Source: a virus
Lineage: Duplodnaviria > Heunggongvirae > Uroviricota > Caudoviricetes
Length of the DNA: 7,836 nucleotides
Reading direction: 5' to 3' (one strand)
IMG/VR virus record: IMGVR_UViG_2529293142_000019
Span: 1 to 7,836 of that record
The position numbers and the translations under genes were made by a program. Numbering within the stretch: the first letter of the stretch is position 1; the number at the start of each line of letters is the position of its first letter. Shown one piece after another: positions 1 through 7,836 of this stretch. The notes below the pieces were generated by a model. That model had not been told where the DNA came from. It made no database searches and saw nothing but the letters and a program-made list of their open reading frames with translations.

Positions 1-1431
1 AGTAATATCATTGCCCAGCTCGTGGCGGTCTTGCTGAATGGCAATATCGCGGGTGATGGCCACGATGCTGTCGATTTCTTCTGGATGGGCAAAGACCATC
101 ATATGCCAGTGCACGGTGCCGTCATGGTGAGGCTCCACCGTGCGGATGCCATACCAGCGCAGGCCGTCGCGGTTCAGTTTCTTGCGGACCGCCGCAAAAA
201 ACGTGTTAACCAGGTAATCGCTGGAGTCGCGCATGGTGGCCCCGTTCCATTTGGGATTCGGATGACCGTTCTCTGTTGTGGCGTGGTATTTTGACGGGCA
301 GGTGACAGTCAGAAACACCGCTTTGTCGCCACGGGCTTCGGCCAGAAGTTCCAGTCCCTTCATGGTGGCCATCATTTCTGCCTTACGGTGAACCGGGTTA
401 CTTACTCCCGCGTAATACACTGTCTCGAGATCAATCGTGAAGCCGTCTTCGTTTTCCAGTTCGAAGCTCTTCAGGAAGTCGCGGGTTTTCTCGCGCTGTG
501 CGCGAAACTCGCTTAACGCGTCCTGGCTCAGATAGGGTGATGTTTTTCTGGAAACCAGACAGGCGGCGCGGAGTTGTTCTTCTCTCCACTCGCAACGTAA
601 CAGCCACAGTTTGCGTTTCCACCAGTCCGCACAGGTCAGGCGAAGGATTGCGCCCGGCAGCAGTTCCGTATCCGGTTCGCTCTTGTTCAGGGCTTCGTAA
701 TGTGGCGGCATGTTGTGCAGGCGTAATGCGATACGAGCCAGCATCCGGTAAGCCTTCAACATTACATCCATGGTCAGCTCGCCATCTCTGGCACCAAAGC
801 CATCGCAGAGTGTTTCGAAGGTGCTGCTGAACATCGCCGCGGTCATGGTGGCCAGCATCTGTATCTGGTGCTTGTTGAGCTGCGGCAGGTAAAGCAAATC
901 GTCCAGGCGTTCGCGCCCGGCAAGGGAGCGATAACCCGGTGTCAGCCAGCGTCCGTCAGTGCGATCCAGACGTTCGAATATTTTGCGCAGGGTTCCGCGT
1001 GCATAGCGTTCCGCCTGCCAGCTCTTTTTGCCTTTCTGGCGATCGGCTTCCTGTTTTTTGCGCAGGAAAGAGAGGTGGCGGCTCAGTGGTTCACGCAGAT
1101 AAACAGGTAGTGCCTTTAGTGTGGCAAAGGCACGGGCTACCGGGTCTTGTTCTGTTGCCCGGCGCTTACTGATGATGCTCTGTGCCAGCTTTTCACGCTG
1201 TCCGGCTTCCTCAAGGGATGCCATGAGTTTTTTACCCATGGCGGATTGTGCGAAAAAGGCTTCCTCCTTCGCTTCCTGTTCTTCCTGTTCTTCCTGTGCC
1301 CTTTTGTCCGCCTCAAGGTAGTAACGGATGGCGCGTTGCAGGTCGGTTTCAGTTTCCTGCCTGCGCTCCGTAAATCTGGCCGGATCAATGGCTGGCCGTG
1401 GTTCATTCCAGCTCCATGCAAACTCACTCAT
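1..1431 (-). CDS. Replication initiation endonuclease, P2 gpA-like (HUH rolling-circle Rep); partial, N-terminal ~477 aa, C-terminus lies beyond the left window edge
   Basis: Uninterrupted minus-strand reading frame from ATG at 1431-1429 to position 1 (my own translation; it is missing from the ORF track because no stop falls in the window). Translation begins MSEFAWSWNEPRPAIDPARF and contains GIRTVEPHHDGTVHWHMMVFAHPEE, a His-hydrophobic-His motif typical of HUH Rep endonucleases. The start overlaps the stop of the upstream ORF (ATGA at 1428-1431). Position next to a P2-type int/C/cox switch fits gene A. Confidence 0.8.
   Translation of the reverse strand, partial: MSEFAWSWNEPRPAIDPARFTERRQETETDLQRAIRYYLEADKRAQEEQEEQEAKEEAFFAQSAMGKKLMASLEEAGQREKLAQSIISKRRATEQDPVARAFATLKALPVYLREPLSRHLSFLRKKQEADRQKGKKSWQAERYARGTLRKIFERLDRTDGRWLTPGYRSLAGRERLDDLLYLPQLNKHQIQMLATMTAAMFSSTFETLCDGFGARDGELTMDVMLKAYRMLARIALRLHNMPPHYEALNKSEPDTELLPGAILRLTCADWWKRKLWLLRCEWREEQLRAACLVSRKTSPYLSQDALSEFRAQREKTRDFLKSFELENEDGFTIDLETVYYAGVSNPVHRKAEMMATMKGLELLAEARGDKAVFLTVTCPSKYHATTENGHPNPKWNGATMRDSSDYLVNTFFAAVRKKLNRDGLRWYGIRTVEPHHDGTVHWHMMVFAHPEEIDSIVAITRDIAIQQDRHELGNDIT
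1272..1298. repeat. In-frame 9-bp tandem repeat (cttcctgtt x2 plus cttcctgtg) inside the gpA-like gene
   Basis: Three adjacent near-identical 9-mers on the plus strand; on the minus strand they encode an acidic QEEQEEQE stretch near the gpA N-terminus. Confidence 0.6.
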
Positions 1432-1817
1432 GGCTGGTATCCCGTCACGCGCTGCCACTCCTGCGAGAAGATGGCGGAAAGGCGGTTAAATTCAGCGGTG
1501 TATTCACTCAGCGAGGCACACCCGCCAGCAGTGCGATGCGCCAGCATTGCCGCGAATACGGAGGCCGGGGAGTCGTAATACGCCAGCAGTGATTCGCCGT
1601 GCGGTGTCAGGCAGTGCAACGCCAGTCCGTGTGGTGTGAAGTCCACGCGGTAGCAGTCGTCTACTGTGAAATAAAGGGTATCCACATTCTCCGGTTTTGT
1701 AGTGCGTGCTCTGTTGTCACGACCACGGATGTAAAGATCAAATAATCCCTGAAGAACGGGAGCCAGACGGGTGTCCTGTGTGCGCACCCATCTTGTGAAG
1801 TCATGAGCGTCAATCAT
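1428..1817 (-). CDS. Hypothetical protein (129 aa), translationally coupled to the gpA-like gene
   Basis: ORF with ATG at 1817-1815; its stop TGA (1430-1428) overlaps the gpA ATG as ATGA. Sits in the position of the small ORFs that precede gene A in P2-like phages. No recognisable motif. Confidence 0.55.
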   Translation of the reverse strand: MIDAHDFTRWVRTQDTRLAPVLQGLFDLYIRGRDNRARTTKPENVDTLYFTVDDCYRVDFTPHGLALHCLTPHGESLLAYYDSPASVFAAMLAHRTAGGCASLSEYTAEFNRLSAIFSQEWQRVTGYQP

Positions 1818-1889
1818 GCTGCAATTCTCTTTACTACAGATGTGCGAAGGCCTCCCGCCGCAAGGTGCAGGAAAGGCCCGGAACAGGAA

Positions 1890-2120
1890 TTAATGGAGTT
1901 TGTTTTGCTGCTGGATGAGCTGCTGAAGCTCGCGCAGATCATCCGCCAGATAACTGAAAACAGCGGATGAGTAGAGGTTTGAAAGTTCGCAGCTACGCTC
2001 ATGCAGCATATTGATGTGCATGATTTTAGCGACGCGGAATGCGCGGGAAAGTCTGCGGTTGATTTCAGTCTGGATGTGACGACGCTCCGCGATAGCGCGG
2101 TGCTGTTTGCGGTTTGCCAT
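1890..2120 (-). CDS. Hypothetical small basic protein (76 aa), first gene after the structured non-coding segment
   Basis: ATG at 2120-2118 preceded by AAGAGG about 7 nt upstream (minus strand reads ACAACCAAAGAGGCCACACC-ATG). Translation MANRKQHRAIAERRHIQTEINRRLSRAF... is Arg/Lys/His-rich with helical-looking composition. An alternative 224-aa ORF in another frame across this region looks non-coding. Confidence 0.55.
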   Translation of the reverse strand: MANRKQHRAIAERRHIQTEINRRLSRAFRVAKIMHINMLHERSCELSNLYSSAVFSYLADDLRELQQLIQQQNKLH

Positions 2121-2130
2121 GGTGTGGCCT

Positions 2131-2175
2131 CTTTGGTTGTAAGTTTTGAAAACTCACCATCCAGAGCTGCGAAAC
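2131..2175 (-). promoter_or_regulatory. Box module X: boxA (CTTTGGTTGT, 2131-2140) and boxB (GCTGCGAAAC, 2166-2175) in the leader of the 76-aa ORF; boxA abuts the ribosome-binding site
   Basis: Both 10-mers recur in the same order at 2326-2351 (module Y) and as an inverted copy at 2198-2220 (module M). On the minus-strand RNA, boxA lies immediately 5' of the AGAGG Shine-Dalgarno of the 76-aa ORF. Confidence 0.35.
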
Positions 2176-2183
2176 TGTGGGTG

Positions 2184-2257
2184 GCGAGACGTACGGGGTT
2201 CGCAGTACCGGCAACCAAAGAACCCGGCCCGACCGAAGTCGGCCCCGTACGCCCCGC
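2184..2257 (-). ncRNA. Candidate ~70-nt structured RNA element carrying the inverted box module M, enclosed by a long-range stem; P4 CI-RNA-like by architecture only
   Basis: Perfect 9-bp inverted repeat cgtacgggg (2190-2198) / ccccgtacg (2243-2251), extendable by ggcgag/cccgcc with one G-U on the minus-strand RNA. It encloses a 5-bp hairpin with a UUCG tetraloop on the minus strand (2229-2242) and the inverted boxes at 2198-2220. No ORF with coding character covers it. Confidence 0.3.
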
Positions 2258-2297
2258 CATAATTCTGACGCGAAAAAAACGTGGCAATACAGTACGC

Positions 2298-2320
2298 ACA
2301 AAAAAACCGCTGGCGCGGTT
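2298..2320 (-). terminator. Putative intrinsic terminator on the minus strand (short GC hairpin followed by a U-tract)
   Basis: Plus strand 2305-2320 aaccgc-tggc-gcggtt forms a 6-bp stem with a 4-nt loop; on the minus strand it is followed directly by a T-run (plus-strand A-run 2300-2306). It lies immediately 3' of box module Y on the minus-strand RNA. The stem is short, so strength is uncertain. Confidence 0.35.
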
Positions 2321-2325
2321 GTGCG

Positions 2326-2351
2326 CTTTGGTTGTCAGCAGGCTGCGAAAC
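2326..2351 (-). promoter_or_regulatory. Box module Y: boxA (CTTTGGTTGT, 2326-2335) and boxB (GCTGCGAAAC, 2342-2351) separated by 6 nt
   Basis: Direct repeat of module X with a shorter spacer. Its reverse complement matches module M (2198-2220) over 9 + 7 nt with the same 6-nt spacer. Confidence 0.35.
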
Positions 2352-2456
2352 CCGGCACCCGTTTTATGAGGTGCAGCGAAAATGTAACCTGACTGATTGC
2401 GGCATGGCAAGCGGTTTTTTTGTGAGAACGGCATACTAAAAAATCCTGATACTGCT

Positions 2457-2481
2457 CCGGCCAGCGGTTTGCACTGGCCGG
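2457..2481 (-). other. Perfect 8-bp GC-rich inverted repeat 6 nt downstream of the SPFH gene stop; possible 3' stabilising hairpin or atypical terminator
   Basis: ccggccag (2457-2464) and ctggccgg (2474-2481) with a 9-nt loop. On the minus strand the nearest U-run starts about 14 nt after the stem, so it is not a canonical rho-independent terminator. Confidence 0.3.
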
Positions 2482-2487
2482 GTGTCA

Positions 2488-3318
2488 TTACTTCACGGGA
2501 ACGAACGGAACAGCGGTGTTACTGGTCATGTATTGCGGCAGCGTGCCGTTCCATTTGTTGATCGCTTCCAGCTCCATAACGCCGGGATTCTGGCGCAGAG
2601 CTTCGCCGCGTAAACGAATGGCGTCGGCTTCAGCCTGGGCTTTTGTGCGAATGGCATCGGCCTGTCCGGCAGCTTCTGCGCGCAACATGTTGGCTTCTGC
2701 TTCGCGTTGCTTGACTTCCTGTTCGCGTTGCAGGGTTTTCTGGTTTGCCGTGACTTTGGCGTTAATGCTGTCGATAACGGTTGGCGGATATTCCGGTTTA
2801 CCGACATAAGAGAGGCTCATGACCTGAATACCGATGGGGGTCATCTCTTCCTGAATATCTTTAAGTGCTGAATCCAGCAGTTCAGACTTACCACCGTCGA
2901 TAAACTTATCGGTGGTCATTTTGCTGGCCAGTCGGTTGAGTGCATCGGCGATCTTCTGGCGCAGGTCAGTGTCGGTAATGTCGTCCACGCCTTTGCGGTA
3001 GGTCTGAAACACTGTGGTCACTTTGGATGGATCAACCTTGTAGGCCACGCCGATGTGATAGCCGATGGTTGTGCCATCGCTCATCTGGAAACTGAACGGC
3101 TCATCGTAGGTCTTCATTTGTTTGAAGGTCGGGAAGATGTAAACCTCGGTATTCCAGCCAGTCCAGTAGCGGCCAACGCCAACCACTTCGCCGACGCCTT
3201 TGTCGTCGCCCAGCTTGTTGACTTTGATGCCCACATTACCTGGCTCAACGCGATCGCAACCAACCAACAGGATGGCCGCAAAAAGCGGGATAATCTGAAA
3301 GAGTTTGAGTTTCTTCAT
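2488..3318 (-). CDS. SPFH / band-7 (prohibitin-HflK/C-like) domain lipoprotein, 276 aa
   Basis: N-terminus MKKLKLFQIIPLFAAILLVGCDR has a signal peptide with lipobox LVGC. A central SPFH-like region is followed by an Ala/Glu/Arg/Gln-rich coiled-coil stretch (QREQEVKQREAEANMLRAEAAGQADAIRTKAQAEADAIRLRGEALRQ) typical of SPFH proteins. AAGGA lies about 9 nt upstream of the ATG; the start overlaps the upstream ORF stop as ATGA (3315-3318). Confidence 0.8.
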   Translation of the reverse strand: MKKLKLFQIIPLFAAILLVGCDRVEPGNVGIKVNKLGDDKGVGEVVGVGRYWTGWNTEVYIFPTFKQMKTYDEPFSFQMSDGTTIGYHIGVAYKVDPSKVTTVFQTYRKGVDDITDTDLRQKIADALNRLASKMTTDKFIDGGKSELLDSALKDIQEEMTPIGIQVMSLSYVGKPEYPPTVIDSINAKVTANQKTLQREQEVKQREAEANMLRAEAAGQADAIRTKAQAEADAIRLRGEALRQNPGVMELEAINKWNGTLPQYMTSNTAVPFVPVK

Positions 3319-3518
3319 TGTTTGATTTCCTTGATGTACTTACTGAAAAGGCGAACAACGCCTGCCGGGTACAGCATGGCAATGAAAATGCCCAGCAATA
3401 CCAGGAAGGAGCTGTCTGATGAAATCATTCGGGGGAGTAGTCCTGCATACAGAATGAGAGAGACGAGGACGCATACCAGCGCCCACATGTATGCGCGAAA
3501 CCAGGTCTTTTTGTTCAT
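3315..3518 (-). CDS. Small membrane protein (67 aa, two predicted TM helices), coupled partner of the SPFH lipoprotein
   Basis: Translation MNKKTWFRAYMWALVCVLVSLILYAGLLPRMISSDSSFLVLLGIFIAMLYPAGVV has two hydrophobic segments. ATGA overlaps at both ends (3515-3518 and 3315-3318); AAGAGAG-type Shine-Dalgarno upstream. Confidence 0.6.
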   Translation of the reverse strand: MNKKTWFRAYMWALVCVLVSLILYAGLLPRMISSDSSFLVLLGIFIAMLYPAGVVRLFSKYIKEIKQ

Positions 3519-3733
3519 GTTGATTGCTCTCTTTTGTTATTCAGGAAAAAGTCAAAAACGTTATCGATGCGCATCATAAGTTCGCGCTGCATCGCTTCTG
3601 GTGTTTCCGGTTCGCCAGGCGACCCCAGCGTTGCGCAGAAATCAGCGATCTCGTGTTGAATGAGTTCTTTCAGCGTCAGTAAGGAATTCATGTGTGTGCG
3701 GCGATGCCTGCGTGTGATTCGCCTTCTGCTCAT
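3515..3733 (-). CDS. Hypothetical protein (72 aa) with a highly basic N-terminus
   Basis: ATG at 3733 preceded by AGGAG about 8 nt upstream; its start overlaps the upstream stop as ATGA (3730-3733). Translation begins MSRRRITRRHRRTH. No recognisable motif. Confidence 0.5.
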   Translation of the reverse strand: MSRRRITRRHRRTHMNSLLTLKELIQHEIADFCATLGSPGEPETPEAMQRELMMRIDNVFDFFLNNKREQST

Positions 3734-3933
3734 TTACGCTGCTCCTGTACCTGTCGGATAAGGTTTACCCGCGCCACATTAGTGGCGCAGAAATAAGTGC
3801 CGTCAGTGAGGTAGATGTGGTGTGCATCCTTTTCCGAACGATGTTTGTCGATAGTGGTAATCAGGCGTTCGTCGACCTCGTATTCGCGCCCTCTGGAGGT
3901 AAAGCGAACGACGGGAAAATGCTTAATTGCCAT
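3730..3933 (-). CDS. Hypothetical protein (67 aa from the ATG at 3933; the track ORF extends to a TTG at 3954)
   Basis: ATG at 3933-3931 is preceded by a strong purine-rich Shine-Dalgarno (AAAAAAAGGGGGGCA-ATG on the minus strand). The stop overlaps the next ATG. Confidence 0.5.
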   Translation of the reverse strand: MAIKHFPVVRFTSRGREYEVDERLITTIDKHRSEKDAHHIYLTDGTYFCATNVARVNLIRQVQEQRK

Positions 3934-3959
3934 TGCCCCCCTTTTTTTGTCCAATAACC

Positions 3960-4313
3960 CTATGCGTTAAATACGGCACGTTGCGCGTCATCAATGAATA
4001 CAGCTTGAGAGCGTTCTATCAGGCGGAGATTTGTCAGAAGCTCTGACTCTTTTGTGTGGTAAGGCGTTATCAGGTATTTGCCGTGCAGTTCGGCAATAAT
4101 GGTGTATTGCAGCATCATTGCTGAACCAAGAATATAAATGCAGCGCCCAATGCTGGACGGATTCATGGCTGCAACTGTTGACTGTGTTTTAAGAGTGTCG
4201 ATTTCTTTGCTCTGTTCCTCAATAATTTTAGCTGCGTCAGCGGTGATTTTTGCAATGGTCAGTGCGTGAAGTGCTGCCATGTGTTGGCTATGGTTCATGG
4301 CATCTTTAGCCAT
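3960..4313 (-). CDS. Hypothetical protein (117 aa; alternative start at ATG 4298 giving 112 aa)
   Basis: ORF with ATG at 4313 (GGAAG about 5 nt upstream). The internal ATG at 4298 overlaps the stop of a possible 26-codon upstream micro-ORF as ATGA. No recognisable motif. Confidence 0.5.
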   Translation of the reverse strand: MAKDAMNHSQHMAALHALTIAKITADAAKIIEEQSKEIDTLKTQSTVAAMNPSSIGRCIYILGSAMMLQYTIIAELHGKYLITPYHTKESELLTNLRLIERSQAVFIDDAQRAVFNA

Positions 4314-4467
4314 CTGGTCTTCCGCTTCAGATATTTTTTTAATGTGTCGATGATGCCTTCTTCTTTTGCGTTCATTTTATATCTCCGCTATTTACGTGTG
4401 CGAATACCTCCGTTAATACGGATGGTTTTCACGTTTTCTTATTTAATTTGATGTTTTATTTGTATCG

Positions 4468-4692
4468 TTATTCATCAGAGAAAAAACGCTCGATCTTTTT
4501 CACTGAATGAATAATTCGCATAATTCCAATGGCACAGGCCACCGAAATAATCAGAACAAGCCATGAGATAATATACTCATGCGATATTCCCCAGCTTATA
4601 CGGTTCAATATGTTCCCCGCATTCTGCGGCACAGATAAGCTCGGAAAGCTCGTTAAGTGCATCCAGATCATCAGCGTAAAAAGCCACGTCAT
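4468..4692 (-). CDS. Possible small membrane protein (74 aa); overlaps the upstream ORF out of frame, start uncertain
   Basis: ATG at 4692 with GGAG about 5 nt upstream; the C-terminal half (YIISWLVLIISVACAIGIMRII) is strongly hydrophobic. It overlaps 4577-4692 of the 80-aa ORF in another frame, so one of the two may be spurious or they truly overlap. Confidence 0.3.
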   Translation of the reverse strand: MTWLFTLMIWMHLTSFPSLSVPQNAGNILNRISWGISHEYIISWLVLIISVACAIGIMRIIHSVKKIERFFSDE

Positions 4693-4819
4693 ACAGACTC
4701 CGGATTGCTCTGGTTAATGAGTCACGGGCTGCACGTTCAGCATGAGCGCCTGATGCACTTAAGCGAAAATAAAAACGCTCAAGTGCTTTGTTAATGAGAG
4801 TTTTATATTCTTTGCCCAT
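4577..4819 (-). CDS. Hypothetical protein (80 aa from ATG 4819; the track start at 4822 is a GTG)
   Basis: AAAGGG about 7 nt upstream of the ATG; it follows the upstream stop (TAA at 4831-4833) by a short gap. Translation MGKEYKTLINKALERFYFRL... has protein-like composition. Confidence 0.5.
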   Translation of the reverse strand: MGKEYKTLINKALERFYFRLSASGAHAERAARDSLTRAIRSLYDVAFYADDLDALNELSELICAAECGEHIEPYKLGNIA

Positions 4820-4830
4820 CACAACGCCCT

Positions 4831-5109
4831 TTAATCTGCTTTCTGAATTTCAGCTTCTGAATCCATACAAATAATTTCGATATAGGGTTCATCGCCATTA
4901 ACCTGACGTGCCTTTTCAGCTTCGCTAATGATTTCGCGTACGGTCTGGTACGGAAGTTCCACAAACAATCGCGTGCCGTTCAGATAAAGGTAAGTGGCCA
5001 CATCTTTTTCTGCCGGGACTACAGCATCAATAGCTGATGCGCGTAACAACAACTCACCGCGAAAATCAATAAAGCGGATAAATACACCTTGTGCATGGTC
5101 TTTAGTCAT
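4831..5109 (-). CDS. Hypothetical acidic protein (92 aa from ATG 5109; the track ORF extends to a TTG at 5169)
   Basis: ATG at 5109 preceded by AGGTG about 4 nt upstream and by the upstream stop (TAA-CAGGTGCTTT-ATG). Translation MTKDHAQGVFIRFIDFRGELLLRASAIDAVV... has an acidic C-terminus. Confidence 0.5.
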   Translation of the reverse strand: MTKDHAQGVFIRFIDFRGELLLRASAIDAVVPAEKDVATYLYLNGTRLFVELPYQTVREIISEAEKARQVNGDEPYIEIICMDSEAEIQKAD

Positions 5110-5119
5110 AAAGCACCTG

Positions 5120-5578
5120 TTATAAATCAGCTTGTTTAATAAAACTTTGCCCACGAAGCAGACGATCAACTGTGCGAAGTGCTTCGTATAATGTGAAATC
5201 CTGCCCGAACTGATTGTCGCCGCAGTTCAATGCAAAAATGCGGTTTCCGGTAAATGGATTGCGTGGGCATCTGTGAACTACGATTCCAGCTTTTTCAATC
5301 AGCCAAGTGTGTTCGCCAATTTGTTTTACTGTATGGCCATCTGGCGTTGCGTGCGTCTCGCTTAGGCTGTAGCGAGAGTTGCTACGTGATGCACTGGTAG
5401 TGAAGCGGTTAGCGTGGCGTTCTGCGCCGTTGCGGAAGCGCTGTTGTGAAGAATTGCGCTGTTGCTTCATGTCAAAAACTCCGTACCTGTTTACTTCCCC
5501 GGCATAACGCCCATTTTCAAAATAATTGCGGCGAAATCCCATGTTATTGGGTTCGCTGTTTCGCTGTTGCTTATTCAT
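5120..5578 (-). CDS. Hypothetical protein (152 aa from ATG 5578) with an N-terminal Asn/Gln/Arg/Ser-rich low-complexity region and a C-terminal globular-looking domain
   Basis: ATG at 5578 preceded by AGAGGCACAAAAA-ATG; it starts 11 nt after the stop of the upstream small membrane ORF. The C-terminal part (HTWLIEKAGIVVHRCPRNPFTGNRIFALNCGDNQFGQDFTLYEALRTVDRL) looks folded. The track start at 5605 is a TTG. Confidence 0.5.
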   Translation of the reverse strand: MNKQQRNSEPNNMGFRRNYFENGRYAGEVNRYGVFDMKQQRNSSQQRFRNGAERHANRFTTSASRSNSRYSLSETHATPDGHTVKQIGEHTWLIEKAGIVVHRCPRNPFTGNRIFALNCGDNQFGQDFTLYEALRTVDRLLRGQSFIKQADL

Positions 5579-5589
5579 TTTTTGTGCCT

Positions 5590-5796
5590 CTACCCGATAA
5601 GCCAAATAACAAACGCTATGAGCACCGCGCCAATAGTGGTCGGGAAAAGACCTCTGGTATAGGCGGCGAGGTAATGAACGTTGAGAACAATAAAGCGCTC
5701 TTTTTGTCCTGTTAGCTTGTTAAGCAGATAAATCGCTATTACACCCACTTCCAGGAATACAAGGTTCAGAATGGCGCTGATGATATTGCTGGTCAT
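5590..5796 (-). CDS. Possible small membrane protein (68 aa, two hydrophobic helices); start uncertain
   Basis: The hydrophobic C-terminal segment of track ORF 5590..6045 is MTSNIISAILNLVFLEVGVIAIYLL...IGAVLIAFVIWLIG. The longer N-terminal extension overlaps the Cox-like gene out of frame and looks non-coding. The ATG at 5796 has no clear Shine-Dalgarno, hence low confidence. Confidence 0.4.
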   Translation of the reverse strand: MTSNIISAILNLVFLEVGVIAIYLLNKLTGQKERFIVLNVHYLAAYTRGLFPTTIGAVLIAFVIWLIG

Positions 5797-5806
5797 TTTT
5801 GTGTGT

Positions 5807-6328
5807 TTAGTTGCCTTCGCTGCTTTTGAGTCGCTCCAGCTTTGAACTTCTGCCTGTATAAACTCGCTTACCGTTAATGGTCTGGCAGTCTTCTTTATTA
5901 GCTGGAAAGAACTTTCTTTTCTGGCGGTCATACGTCCAGTAACTTTTCCAGTTGTGCCATTCTGGTGGCTCAAGTTCCGGTAGCTCGTCAGCCAGTGCGT
6001 CCCACTCTTTGGCGTTAAACCACCATACTCCGTCTGAGTTTTCATCTTCCGGGTTTGTGCGCGTCTTGTGTCCCGGCATTTGACCGCGATGAATGGCTAC
6101 GCGCAGTGCAGATTTTGTTAGCCCAATATATGCCGCGCCTTTTTCCAGAGAGCAAAGCCCGGCGATCGGACCATCCAGCCGTAAAGTCGCTCCTTTTTTG
6201 TAGGAACGCTTTTTCTTGTTTTCTTCGTGTTCGTCGTCGTTGGCGGCATCAATGGATCCGCTGAGTGCGTCACTTTCCTGAAGTGGTTGGTGGTCAGATA
6301 ACTCTTTATCGGCAATGAAGTCCCGCAT
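5807..6328 (-). CDS. Cox/excisionase-like HTH DNA-binding protein, first gene of the early operon, unusually long (173 aa) with an acidic N-terminal extension
   Basis: ATG at 6328 preceded by AGAGGA 6 nt upstream, and divergent from the repressor gene. The central segment LCSLEKGAAYIGLTKSALRVAIHRGQMPGHK followed by WWFNAKEW resembles the winged-helix excisionase/Cox-Apl family arrangement. Sits where cox lies in P2. Assignment is from motif resemblance only. Confidence 0.5.
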   Translation of the reverse strand: MRDFIADKELSDHQPLQESDALSGSIDAANDDEHEENKKKRSYKKGATLRLDGPIAGLCSLEKGAAYIGLTKSALRVAIHRGQMPGHKTRTNPEDENSDGVWWFNAKEWDALADELPELEPPEWHNWKSYWTYDRQKRKFFPANKEDCQTINGKRVYTGRSSKLERLKSSEGN

Positions 6329-6390
6329 TTGTTATCCTCTTGCGTTGGTGCGCTTGTCGCGCCTTGTGATGGTTTGTTTTGGCTTGTAAA

Positions 6391-6448
6391 GATAACCAAA
6401 TGGTTATCTTTGTGCGAGAGGTTAATACTCAAATGGTTATCTTGTCAA
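6391..6448. promoter_or_regulatory. Lysis-lysogeny switch region: 14-bp direct-repeat candidate operators plus a consensus -35 for the leftward early promoter
   Basis: caaatggttatctt occurs at 6397-6410 and 6430-6443 (33 bp apart, about three helical turns). The first copy is also part of an inverted repeat gataacc-aaat-ggttatc (6391-6408). The minus strand carries a perfect TTGACA (plus-strand tgtcaa, 6443-6448) abutting repeat 2, with a weak TATTAA candidate -10 (6422-6427) lying between the repeats. In P2 the C repressor binds direct repeats flanking the -10 of Pe. Confidence 0.5.
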
Positions 6449-6774
6449 TAGACTATGCAAAAAAGTTACGTCAGATACGTAAGGCGGAAGGGTTAACACA
6501 AAAGCAGTTTGCGGATATTACTGGGTTGTCTTTGGCAACCATAAGGAATTACGAATCGGGGCAAAAGAACGCTAGAGCAAAAATCGTTGAGGCGGTTCTG
6601 CAAGTCGATCGCTTTGAAAAATACATGCTGTGGCTAATAAAAGATAAGACGCTACCTGTCGCCGGGCAGATTGCACCGGCTCTCTCTCTTGATGGCTCTA
6701 TTCAGTCGGAGGGCGATCAGGTTTCAATCGGCATTACCCAAAAATCACCCCGATCAGGCCGCAATGTTGGCTGA
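6433..6774 (+). CDS. Immunity repressor, P2 C-like, HTH (XRE-type), 113 aa from ATG 6433 (the ORF is open from a TTG at 6379; an alternative ATG is at 6400)
   Basis: HTH motif LTQKQFADITGLSLATIRNYESG. The C-terminal region KYMLWLIKDKTLPVAGQIAPALSLDG resembles the P2 C repressor as I recall it. Divergent from the Cox-like gene and directly upstream of int on the same strand, as in P2 (C then int). GAGAGG lies 11 nt upstream of ATG 6433. Confidence 0.75.
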   Translation: MVILSIDYAKKLRQIRKAEGLTQKQFADITGLSLATIRNYESGQKNARAKIVEAVLQVDRFEKYMLWLIKDKTLPVAGQIAPALSLDGSIQSEGDQVSIGITQKSPRSGRNVG

Positions 6775-6843
6775 CTCTACACATTGAGCGAATTACATAT
6801 CGCAAGGAGTGTTTAGTTAATTTATCCGTTGGAGGGGCTAATC

Positions 6844-7836
6844 ATGTCGATTAAGCAACTCAAAGACGGACGTTATCAGGTCGATGTCAGACCGCAGGGG
6901 GCGGAAGGAAAGCGGATTCGAAAAATCTTTGCCCTGAAATCAAAGGCTCAGGAGTTTGAGAAGTATGTGTTACAGAACTTTCATGACAAGCCATGGCAGG
7001 CTAAGCCAGCTGATCAGCGGCGATTATCAGAGCTGCTTGATGCGTGGTGGATGCTTGATGGGCGTAATCAGGCTTACGGGGATAGCTACAGGGTTAGGCT
7101 AGGGAAGGTTGTTCGTGAAATGGGAGATCCTCGCGCCAGTCAGATGACGCGAAAATTTATGCTTGAATATCGGTCAGAGAAATTACAGGCCGGATTAATG
7201 CCGTCCAGTATTAATCGTGACTTATGCGTACTGTCTACCATGTTCACGGTGCTGATTGAAGCTGAGGTCTTTCACAACGCGAACCCTGTACGCGGTATAC
7301 GAAAACTGAAAGTTCAGAACACAGAGATGGCCTTTCTTTCTGATGATGAGATTGAACGGCTTCTTGAGCGACTGGAGGGTGATGCGCGTCGTGTTGCCAT
7401 TCTGTGTCTTTCTACTGGTGCCCGATGGAGTGAAGCATCGGAACTACGTGGAGAGCATATCGTTGGCAACCGGGTGACGTTCTTTAACACCAAAAACGGA
7501 AAATCCCGTTCGGTTCCTGTGGCGGATTCGGTCGTGCCTCTGATTAAAACCCGTCGAACGGGGTTATTGTATCAGGTTGATTATCTGAAGTTCCGGGAGA
7601 TTCTTCAGGAGGTGAAACCGGATTTGCCGAAGGGGCAGGCTACGCATGTCATGCGTCATACGTTTGCCACACACTTTATGATGAATGGCGGAAATATTGT
7701 TACGTTGCAACGAATCCTGGGGCACGCAACGATTCAGCAAACAATGACGTACGCTCATTTTTCGCCGGACTTTTTACAGGACGCGATCAACTTTAATCCG
7801 CTGGCTGAAAGTGTCCATAAACTGTCCATCGATTAG
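6844..7836 (+). CDS. int: Tyrosine integrase (phage integrase family, P2 Int-like), 330 aa
   Basis: GGAGG 8 nt upstream of ATG 6844 (the track start at 6829 is a TTG). The N-terminus MSIKQLKDGRYQVDVRPQG parallels P2 Int. C-terminal catalytic signature present: ARWSE (Arg), HVMRHTFATHF (His-x-x-Arg), LGHATIQQTMTYAHF (catalytic Tyr). The stop TAG is at 7834-7836, the window end. Confidence 0.9.
   Translation: MSIKQLKDGRYQVDVRPQGAEGKRIRKIFALKSKAQEFEKYVLQNFHDKPWQAKPADQRRLSELLDAWWMLDGRNQAYGDSYRVRLGKVVREMGDPRASQMTRKFMLEYRSEKLQAGLMPSSINRDLCVLSTMFTVLIEAEVFHNANPVRGIRKLKVQNTEMAFLSDDEIERLLERLEGDARRVAILCLSTGARWSEASELRGEHIVGNRVTFFNTKNGKSRSVPVADSVVPLIKTRRTGLLYQVDYLKFREILQEVKPDLPKGQATHVMRHTFATHFMMNGGNIVTLQRILGHATIQQTMTYAHFSPDFLQDAINFNPLAESVHKLSID

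Follow-up and report, generated by a model that had tools for sequence, protein, structure and literature searches.

A C4/CI-type antisense RNA module ahead of an epsilon-like gene in the early region of a P88-like prophage

The window analyzed here is a stretch of 7,836 nucleotides of viral DNA (positions 1 to 7,836 of IMG/VR record IMGVR_UViG_2529293142_000019). Judged by its list of open reading frames (ORFs) and their Pfam and PHROG matches, it is the early region of a P2-family prophage. The nearest phage records were P88, vB_EcoM-569R5, P884B11 and Citrobacter phiSM, all of them Peduoviridae; where a genus was given, it was Xuanwuvirus. We studied the segment at 2121-2487, which lies on the minus strand between the gene of an SPFH lipoprotein and the gene of a protein of 76 amino acids (aa). 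A preliminary description of the sequence had proposed for this segment a central element that can pair with either of two flanking box pairs, a logic like that of seqA, seqB and seqC in the satellite phage P4. We found that the segment is a member of the C4/CI antisense-RNA family. The central element corresponds to a′ and b′ of the C4 RNA, the upstream box pair to the target boxes a1 and b1, and the downstream box pair to the target boxes a2 and b2. The features of the module and of its first downstream gene are listed here in the order of transcription.

2488-1814, minus strand: Ash-type open frame of 224 codons, running across the module (Pfam PF10554, Phage_ASH)
2410-2381, minus strand: predicted internal sigma-70-type promoter, with -35 TTGCCA at 2410-2405, an 18-nt spacer and -10 TACATT at 2386-2381 (consensus scan)
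2374-2300, minus strand: leader RNA of the IsrK/P4 seqA type, comprising a 5′ hairpin (2355-2374), a1, b1 and a terminator (RF01394)
2349-2343, minus strand: core of target box a1, within the leader RNA
2334-2326, minus strand: core of target box b1, within the leader RNA
2320-2298, minus strand: intrinsic terminator, with its stem at 2305-2320 and a U-run to 2298 (terminator scan)
2264-2177, minus strand: antisense RNA of the C4/CI type, predicted mature form about 2180-2258 (RF01695)
2175-2166, minus strand: target box a2, core UUCGCAG at 2167-2173, the exact complement of a′
2140-2131, minus strand: target box b2, overlapping the Shine-Dalgarno sequence of the 76-aa gene
2120-1890, minus strand: gene of a 76-aa homologue of P4 epsilon, the first gene after the RNA module (Pfam PF25738, BLASTP)

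All of the box, stem, hairpin and promoter sequences named in the preliminary description were present exactly where it had placed them. The decamer CTTTGGTTGT occurs at 2131-2140 and 2326-2335, and GCTGCGAAAC occurs at 2166-2175 and 2342-2351. Inverted copies are found at 2212-2220 (CAACCAAAG) and 2199-2205 (TTCGCAG). Chance had been thought an unlikely source of this recurrence. That holds for box A, whose 9-mer CTTTGGTTG occurs three times against 0.08 expected, a count that none of 200 shuffles reached. It does not hold for the 7-mer of box B (CTGCGAA) alone, which is not rare (four matches against 1.5 expected; 11 of 200 shuffles). The significance of the box-B 7-mer comes from its placement and its covariation.

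The likeness to P4 was borne out by Rfam. The C4 antisense RNA model (RF01695, clan CL00128, gathering score 45 bits) matched the minus strand at 2177-2264 over its full length (1-87) with 87.1 bits and E = 1e-16, and the isrK model (RF01394, gathering score 50 bits) matched it at 2300-2374 with 65.9 bits. The corresponding region of P4 gave the same matches. There was also a weak match to the c4-a1b1 model, which at 19.6 bits was below gathering and was used for positional alignment only. In both the Rfam alignment and the fold, C4 is closed by a 17-bp stem that joins 2243-2259 with 2182-2198. The perfect 9-bp stem described earlier (2190-2198/2243-2251) is present, but it is only the inner part of this longer one. 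The first hairpin is the UUCG hairpin at 2229-2242. The second occupies 2207-2228 and carries b′ (2212-2220) in its loop, and a′ (2199-2205) lies in the 3′ junction. The conserved AAUUAU leader and an ACC-type 3′ tail are present, and the ends of the mature form were inferred from the annotated P1 c4. The minimum free energy (MFE) of C4 is -49.8 kcal/mol (z = -3.9), and the MFE fold is the model structure. The energies of the box duplexes are -14.5 for b′:b1, -14.8 for b′:b2, -15.3 for a′:a1 and -10.5 kcal/mol for a′:a2. Co-folding of the mature C4 with either target gave no net gain (free-energy difference, ddG, 0 to -0.6 kcal/mol). Because MFE co-folding leaves out loop-loop contacts, only the box-level energies are given.

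The strongest evidence came from relatives of the window. The 76-aa protein fetched 83 loci (L008-L090); one scan of genome contigs gave three loci. The module was upstream of the epsilon-like gene in all 83. Together with the window and three phage records, these loci make up 87 sequences, in which each upstream box changes in step with its C4 segment and its downstream box. Five a-types and about 13 b-types form 18 combinations, and the complements are exact or G-U-tolerant at all three sites. We aligned the 48 distinct module sequences of the P88-like relatives (alignment A1), to which the following values refer. Both a1:a′ and b1:b′ are 100% paired, and four of seven and seven of nine pairs, respectively, have changed on both sides. 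On the downstream side, a′:a2 is 100% paired with four compensatory pairs and b′:b2 is 97.2% paired with six. The 17-bp closing stem is 99.9% paired, with three compensatory pairs; hairpin 1 is 100% paired, with two, and hairpin 2 is invariant. For the whole structure pairing amounts to 99.8%, compared with about 40% when the partners are slid, and none of 500 shuffles reached the observed value. The box columns vary about four times as much as the other columns of the module. Compensatory changes in the boxes and the stem, for which the preliminary description had pointed to P2-like relatives, are therefore present. This is the pattern expected for an antisense RNA whose recognition boxes define immunity specificity. 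From the covariation and the hypervariability of the boxes we infer that they would set this specificity and that the downstream genes would be repressed in trans.

Similar concerted variation was seen elsewhere. P4, P1, Stx2a_1447 and mEp460 each have their own mutually matching boxes at the three sites. Among 80 loci of P4-like satellites (L094-L173), the three-way match was found at every locus, with 13 combinations of three to four a-types and seven b-types; their epsilon is 96-99% identical in 78 of the 80 loci and 70% in the other two. No box combination is common to the P4-like and the P88-like sets. Among the a′ cores, GUGGAAA from the P88-like set and UUUCCAC from the P4-like set are exact reverse complements of each other. 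Four IMG genomes have two module-bearing contigs each (L026/L049, L036/L083, L034/L046 and L085/L087). The b box differs in three of these pairs and is identical in one, which hints at a compatibility defined by the boxes, although four co-resident pairs are too small a sample to conclude. One of the loci, L010 (NZ_JBQPOM010000071.1), is labelled Vagococcus sp., so that a contig assigned to a Gram-positive genus carries this enterobacterial P2-like region, with an epsilon-like protein of 84% identity. The label likely results from contamination or mislabelling.

Around the two RNAs, the promoter-like site and the hairpin with a T-run (2298-2320) of the preliminary description were both returned by the consensus scan. 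The candidate promoter at 2410-2381 matches the consensus at 9 of 12 positions, and its predicted transcription start is near 2374. Across the 48 distinct relatives the two hexamers vary hardly or not at all, and the terminator stem is unchanged. The proposed -10 aligns with positions 2-7 of the c4-a1b1 model, as does the -10 of the annotated P1 c4 promoter (P1c4/P51b). Between the leader terminator and C4 there is a second promoter-like site on the minus strand (TTGCCA-17-AATTAT, 2287-2259). The -10 of this site coincides with the conserved AAUUAU leader of C4, and relatives have either TTGCCA or TCGCCA as its -35. We set this site aside as a promoter because a start there would truncate C4 and the -35 is not conserved. 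On the downstream side, a2 begins 2 nt past the 3′ end (2177) of the C4 match, in agreement with the annotated a2 of P1. As had been described, a box lies at the Shine-Dalgarno sequence of the 76-aa ORF: b2 runs into AAGAGG (2128-2133), which is 7 nt ahead of the AUG at 2120.

In BLASTP, the 76-aa protein was 29% identical to P4 epsilon over 66 aa (E = 1e-8). Its score against PF25738 was marginal (29.5 bits, threshold 27), and P4 epsilon scored 170 bits over its full length on the same model. Diversity in the epsilon-like frame is highest at the third codon position. This gene is presumed to be the regulated target of the module. Its homology to epsilon means that the gene order of P4 is reproduced here, with gpA replacing alpha. 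Taken together, the Rfam matches, the epsilon homologue and the three-way covariation of the boxes indicate that the resemblance to P4 is homology and not mere analogy. The other genes of the window to which we refer are the following.

1817-1428, minus strand: function-unassigned ORF of 129 aa, phrog_3237 (ORF list, PHROG)
1431-1, minus strand: 5′ part of the gpA replication endonuclease gene (Pfam Phage_GPA, E = 1.6e-114; P88 annotation)
3318-2488, minus strand: SPFH lipoprotein gene
6328-5807, minus strand: Cox-type gene
6829-7836, plus strand: integrase

The gpA gene is downstream of the module in the same transcription unit, and its start overlaps the stop of the 129-aa ORF (ATGA at 1428-1431). 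The consensus scan gave no promoter-like site on the minus strand between 1800 and 2258, and BLASTP gave no similarity between the 129-aa ORF and P4 ORF151. The repressor of the window (6439-6774) is of the P2 C type (35% identity to P2 C, E = 2e-23). Downstream of the Cox-type gene, a run of small minus-strand ORFs leads to the SPFH gene. This interval (3315-5605, minus strand) holds many small, overlapping, function-unassigned ORFs (PHROGs 1130, 4144, 3459 and 9338), and the set varies among otherwise close relatives; judged by this variation, it is a region of variable cargo. A perfect 8-bp hairpin, CCGGCCAG...CTGGCCGG, was seen at 2458-2481, just past the SPFH stop, with no U-run adjoining. 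It lies inside the 224-codon frame and is missing in relatives with a different upstream gene. A scan of the window for tRNA and tmRNA gave no match. Past the point that corresponds to the left end of the window, phage P88 has ParM and a partition protein directly downstream of gpA (222-1497), and these genes suggest that P88-like phages might persist in a plasmid-like manner.

The 224-codon frame needs separate consideration. Its AUG at 2488 overlaps the stop of the SPFH gene (TAATG at 2486-2490), and its stop overlaps the AUG of the 129-aa ORF (ATGA at 1814-1817). A second in-frame AUG at 2434 is widely conserved and lies about 20 nt upstream of the -35, whatever the upstream gene. The match to PF10554 covers residues 35-126, about nucleotides 2111-2386. 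According to the preliminary description, no ORF with coding character was present in the segment. The codon statistics agree with this, for the frame has no third-position excess either in the module (0.061/0.092/0.079) or across the epsilon-like gene. The frame nevertheless spans the segment and is open in 56 of 59 distinct P88-like relatives. When the frame is set by the position of C4, the window, P88, 569R5, phiSM, P4 and an Stx phage all have it open, and in P1 it is closed. In P4, an ORF of 214 aa (8168-8812, minus strand) belongs to the same Pfam family. From a start that precedes the P4 promoter it extends across seqA, CI and seqC, and an AUG past the downstream boxes opens its final 65 codons. 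We take this ORF to be eta, with kil as its 65-codon tail. Translation of eta from the upstream PLL reportedly prevents immunity-dependent termination. A conserved 224-aa protein had been named as something that would speak against the RNA. The ORF is indeed widely open and matches the Ash family of Pfam, but P4 carries an Ash-type ORF over its CI RNA, and therefore the ORF and the RNA coexist. In addition, BLASTP found no similarity between the long ORFs of the window and P4, which means that the conserved entity is the RNA. It is plausible that the frame would serve as a ribosome track, letting transcripts from the early promoter bypass the RNA lock, and would not exist for a protein of its own.

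The family names attached to this frame are of some interest. What PF10554 (the "Ash protein family") and a number of PHROG "transcriptional regulator" families represent is apparently the IsrK-C4 RNA module, translated conceptually in a single frame. This concerns the window (1814-2488), P4 (8168-8812) and L005 (1448-2599), all on the minus strand, and L091 (6282-6545). In records of lambdoid phages, antirepressor or Rha genes are extended by about 190 codons upstream, across the module.

The preliminary description had not recognized the system as one already described. In fact, IsrK has been equated with P4 seqA and C4 with P4 CI RNA, and an "IsrK-C4 immunity system" is known in P4, P1, P7, N15 and lambdoid prophages (PMC3632133, PMC4825925). 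The window and P4 share the Rfam matches isrK, C4 and c4-a1b1 in identical order, a pair of RNA-complementary boxes on either side of the RNA, and a long, equally framed Ash-type ORF whose start precedes the internal promoter, a predicted one in the window. They also share the order of leader RNA, CI-type RNA, target boxes, epsilon-family gene and replication gene, and in both the box specificities have diversified combinatorially. However, P4 is a satellite with the alpha primase as its replication gene, whereas the window belongs to a complete phage of the P2 type, which has C, cox, int and gpA. In P4, the downstream boxes are followed by the start of the 65-codon tail of the long ORF, in the same frame, and epsilon comes later. 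In the window, the gene directly after b2 is the epsilon-like ORF, which is in another frame and is not an in-frame tail of the long ORF running across it. The spacer between the leader and the RNA is about 35 nt in the window and about 107 nt in P4.

The P4-like layout proposed earlier thus stands for the order and the boxes, but the geometry of the module is as close to P1 immI as to P4. P1 has an RNA of the C4 family (68.8 bits), and its record annotates a1, b1, c4, a2, b2 and icd with the geometry of the window. In both, a2 directly follows the RNA and is followed by a spacer (22 nt in P1, 25 nt in the window), b2 is located at the ribosome-binding site of the first ORF, which is small (icd, 73 codons, and the 76-aa gene), and the promoter -10, a candidate one in the window, is equally placed relative to a1/b1. 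A repressor antagonist is known as the regulated product in P1 (Ant, P1 record) and is presumed in the window. P1 differs in that its leader has no above-threshold score as an isrK-type terminator leader and no open frame crosses c4. It has no co-directional upstream operon, the flanking sim genes being on the opposite strand, and it regulates icd and ant, where the window has an epsilon-like gene and gpA.

Cassettes of the same kind are also found in lambdoid prophages. The isrK-orf45-anrP locus of Gifsy-1 in Salmonella has an IsrK leader and a C4-like RNA (STnc1160), structural homologues of P4 seqA and CI, upstream of an antirepressor (PMC4825925, PMC3632133). It thus shares both RNAs with the window, with an antirepressor downstream. 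The cassettes of Stx phages and mEp460 are about 72% identical to the window over 2127-2388 and have their own matching boxes; lambdoid phages differ in that the open frame continues without a shift into a Rha-type antirepressor. The early regions of P2 and 186 gave no Rfam match at E <= 0.1. Compared with these prototypes, the module is specific to the P88-like lineage.

We consider it probable that the segment, in the early operon of a P2-family prophage of the P88-like (Xuanwuvirus) kind, provides secondary immunity through an RNA module belonging to the C4/CI family. Under this interpretation, the internal promoter (2410-2381) would be constitutive and would start transcripts near 2374. 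Most of them would end at the 2320-2298 terminator, giving an IsrK/seqA-like RNA of about 75 nt with a1 and b1. By analogy with the RNase P processing in P1 and P4, a read-through precursor would be cut to a C4/CI-like RNA of about 79 nt (about 2258-2180). Its loop b′ and junction a′ could then bind b2 and a2, either in the transcript of origin or in a related one, and so cover the ribosome-binding site of the epsilon-like gene and block its translation. Blocked translation would probably expose the RNA to termination, so that the 129-aa ORF and gpA stay off. Pairing with a1/b1 would be a mutually exclusive alternative, in which either termination of the leader is aided or the leader titrates C4. 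During lytic growth, ribosomes that translate the Ash-type ORF may travel through the whole module on transcripts arriving from the early promoter, the ORF being coupled with the SPFH gene on one side and with the 129-aa ORF and gpA on the other. Such transcripts would be insensitive to the RNA.

Several observations weigh against this immunity interpretation. The promoter, the efficiency of the terminator, the processing and the repression all rest on homology, and the roles of the epsilon-like protein and the ORF are proposed ones. The Pfam score of the epsilon-like protein is barely over the threshold. Folding of the minus-strand RNA, which had been proposed as a check, favored C4 by itself, but the leader alone folds no better than shuffled sequence (z = -0.4), and the MFE of the full read-through RNA pairs a1/b1 with a′/b′ in cis and disrupts the C4 fold. 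The homologous short RNA of Gifsy-1 was shown by experiment to activate its downstream gene, not to repress it (PMC4825925). For the long frame, three relatives have it broken, and its openness across the epsilon-like gene is not significant (P = 0.08 by synonymous resampling, 0.15 by codon-order shuffling). Its openness across the box variants is not significant either (P about 0.12). The frame is open with 13 of 13 b-types and 5 of 5 a-types, but 92% of possible b triples and 81% of a triples would leave it open, and therefore this is expected. As both tests of openness were non-significant, the translation-bypass role is put forward as a hypothesis.

The cis pairing in the read-through RNA recalls "structure A" of Gifsy-1, and the sign of control might be the opposite one. 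Following the logic of IsrK, the read-through RNA would be translationally silent through the cis pairing of a1/b1 with a′/b′, and the abundant short leader would open it in trans and switch on the epsilon-like gene. We regard this as rather unlikely, and it is equally doubtful that the module is a trigger of induction instead of an immunity lock. Gifsy-1 IsrK does activate translation of the downstream ORF and the antirepressor and is needed for prophage induction (PMC4825925), and the leader in the window is an above-threshold isrK match with its own terminator. However, the cis fold leaves the ribosome-binding site (2128-2133) unpaired, and therefore cis pairing alone would not silence the gene. 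Besides, C4 covaries no less tightly with a2/b2, whose b2 occupies the ribosome-binding site, than with a1/b1, and this favors direct occlusion of the P1 kind. Activation of the IsrK type and occlusion by C4 are not mutually exclusive. It is also conceivable, and we hold this tentatively, that the main output of the module is replication immunity by premature termination in the style of P4, with transcripts stopped ahead of the 129-aa ORF and gpA, and that the epsilon-like gene is incidental cargo. P4 CI RNA is said to act via termination. The element order of the P4 record is the same, and gpA lies in the same unit with no promoter-like site in 1800-2258 and with the ORFs chained by overlapping stops and starts. 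Against such termination, no terminator was found downstream of a2/b2 in the scan, Rho-dependent sites being beyond prediction. The C repressor of a lysogen already shuts the early promoter, and therefore a second block on gpA would matter only for transcripts from the internal promoter.

The frame might instead encode a real "Ash family" protein of 205-224 aa, the boxes being by-products of protein repeats or chance. We think this highly improbable, even though the translation has matches in PF10554 and in several PHROG "transcriptional regulator" families, is called an ash family protein by PGAP, and comes from a frame that is open in most relatives. The third-position signal sits in the epsilon frame and is missing from the long one. 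The variable sites change together as reverse complements at three places, which coding cannot account for. The long ORF has no BLASTP similarity to that of P4, P1 has the RNA but no open frame, and PGAP flags the ORF as an incomplete pseudogene. The module might otherwise be an inactive remnant of a P4-like satellite or a lambdoid cassette that recombined into a P2-like prophage. It is true that the sequence upstream of about 2424 differs among relatives while the module is common to them, and that the prototypes P2 and 186 lack it. We nevertheless give this as little credence, since decay would not keep the pairing at 99-100% while the boxes diversify. In addition, the module has the same location at all 83 loci and is widespread in complete E. 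coli genomes, and P88 and phiSM, whose records contain it, are documented there as phages that came from lysogens. The covariation and conservation data contradict all three ideas, a stand-alone Ash protein, a dead remnant and chance repeats.

A 541-bp query comprising the module and the epsilon-like gene matched 1282 of 5426 complete E. coli genomes (24%). The labels given by PGAP/RefSeq are "ash family protein" and "derepression protein", the former flagged as an incomplete pseudogene in the one record opened, and RefSeq lists no RNA feature for the module. Our literature search found no description of the module in P2-type phages, and in a recent survey of P2-like viruses antisense RNA and derepression were both unmentioned. 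A P2-type helper phage with a P4-type cassette and an epsilon homologue ahead of gpA therefore appears to be an undescribed context for this family.

P2 serves in textbooks as the example of a phage that cannot be induced and whose repressor P4 epsilon inactivates from outside. With an epsilon homologue placed under a CI/C4-type RNA switch directly ahead of gpA in a P2-type phage, one can ask how this common prophage lineage controls derepression and replication. As a further and doubtful step, P88-like phages might have a two-layer immunity like that of P1, with the C repressor and an RNA-gated antirepressor, the second layer being homologous part for part to the cassette of satellite P4. If so, helper and satellite would have exchanged the cassette, the epsilon-like protein would be the derepressor of the phage itself or of a rival prophage, and the hypervariable boxes would mark selection for heteroimmunity among P2-like phages and satellites. 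The finding bears on the origin of the P4 immunity cassette and on whether the 17-18 combinations of boxes in P88-like relatives set which P2-like phages can coexist in one cell.

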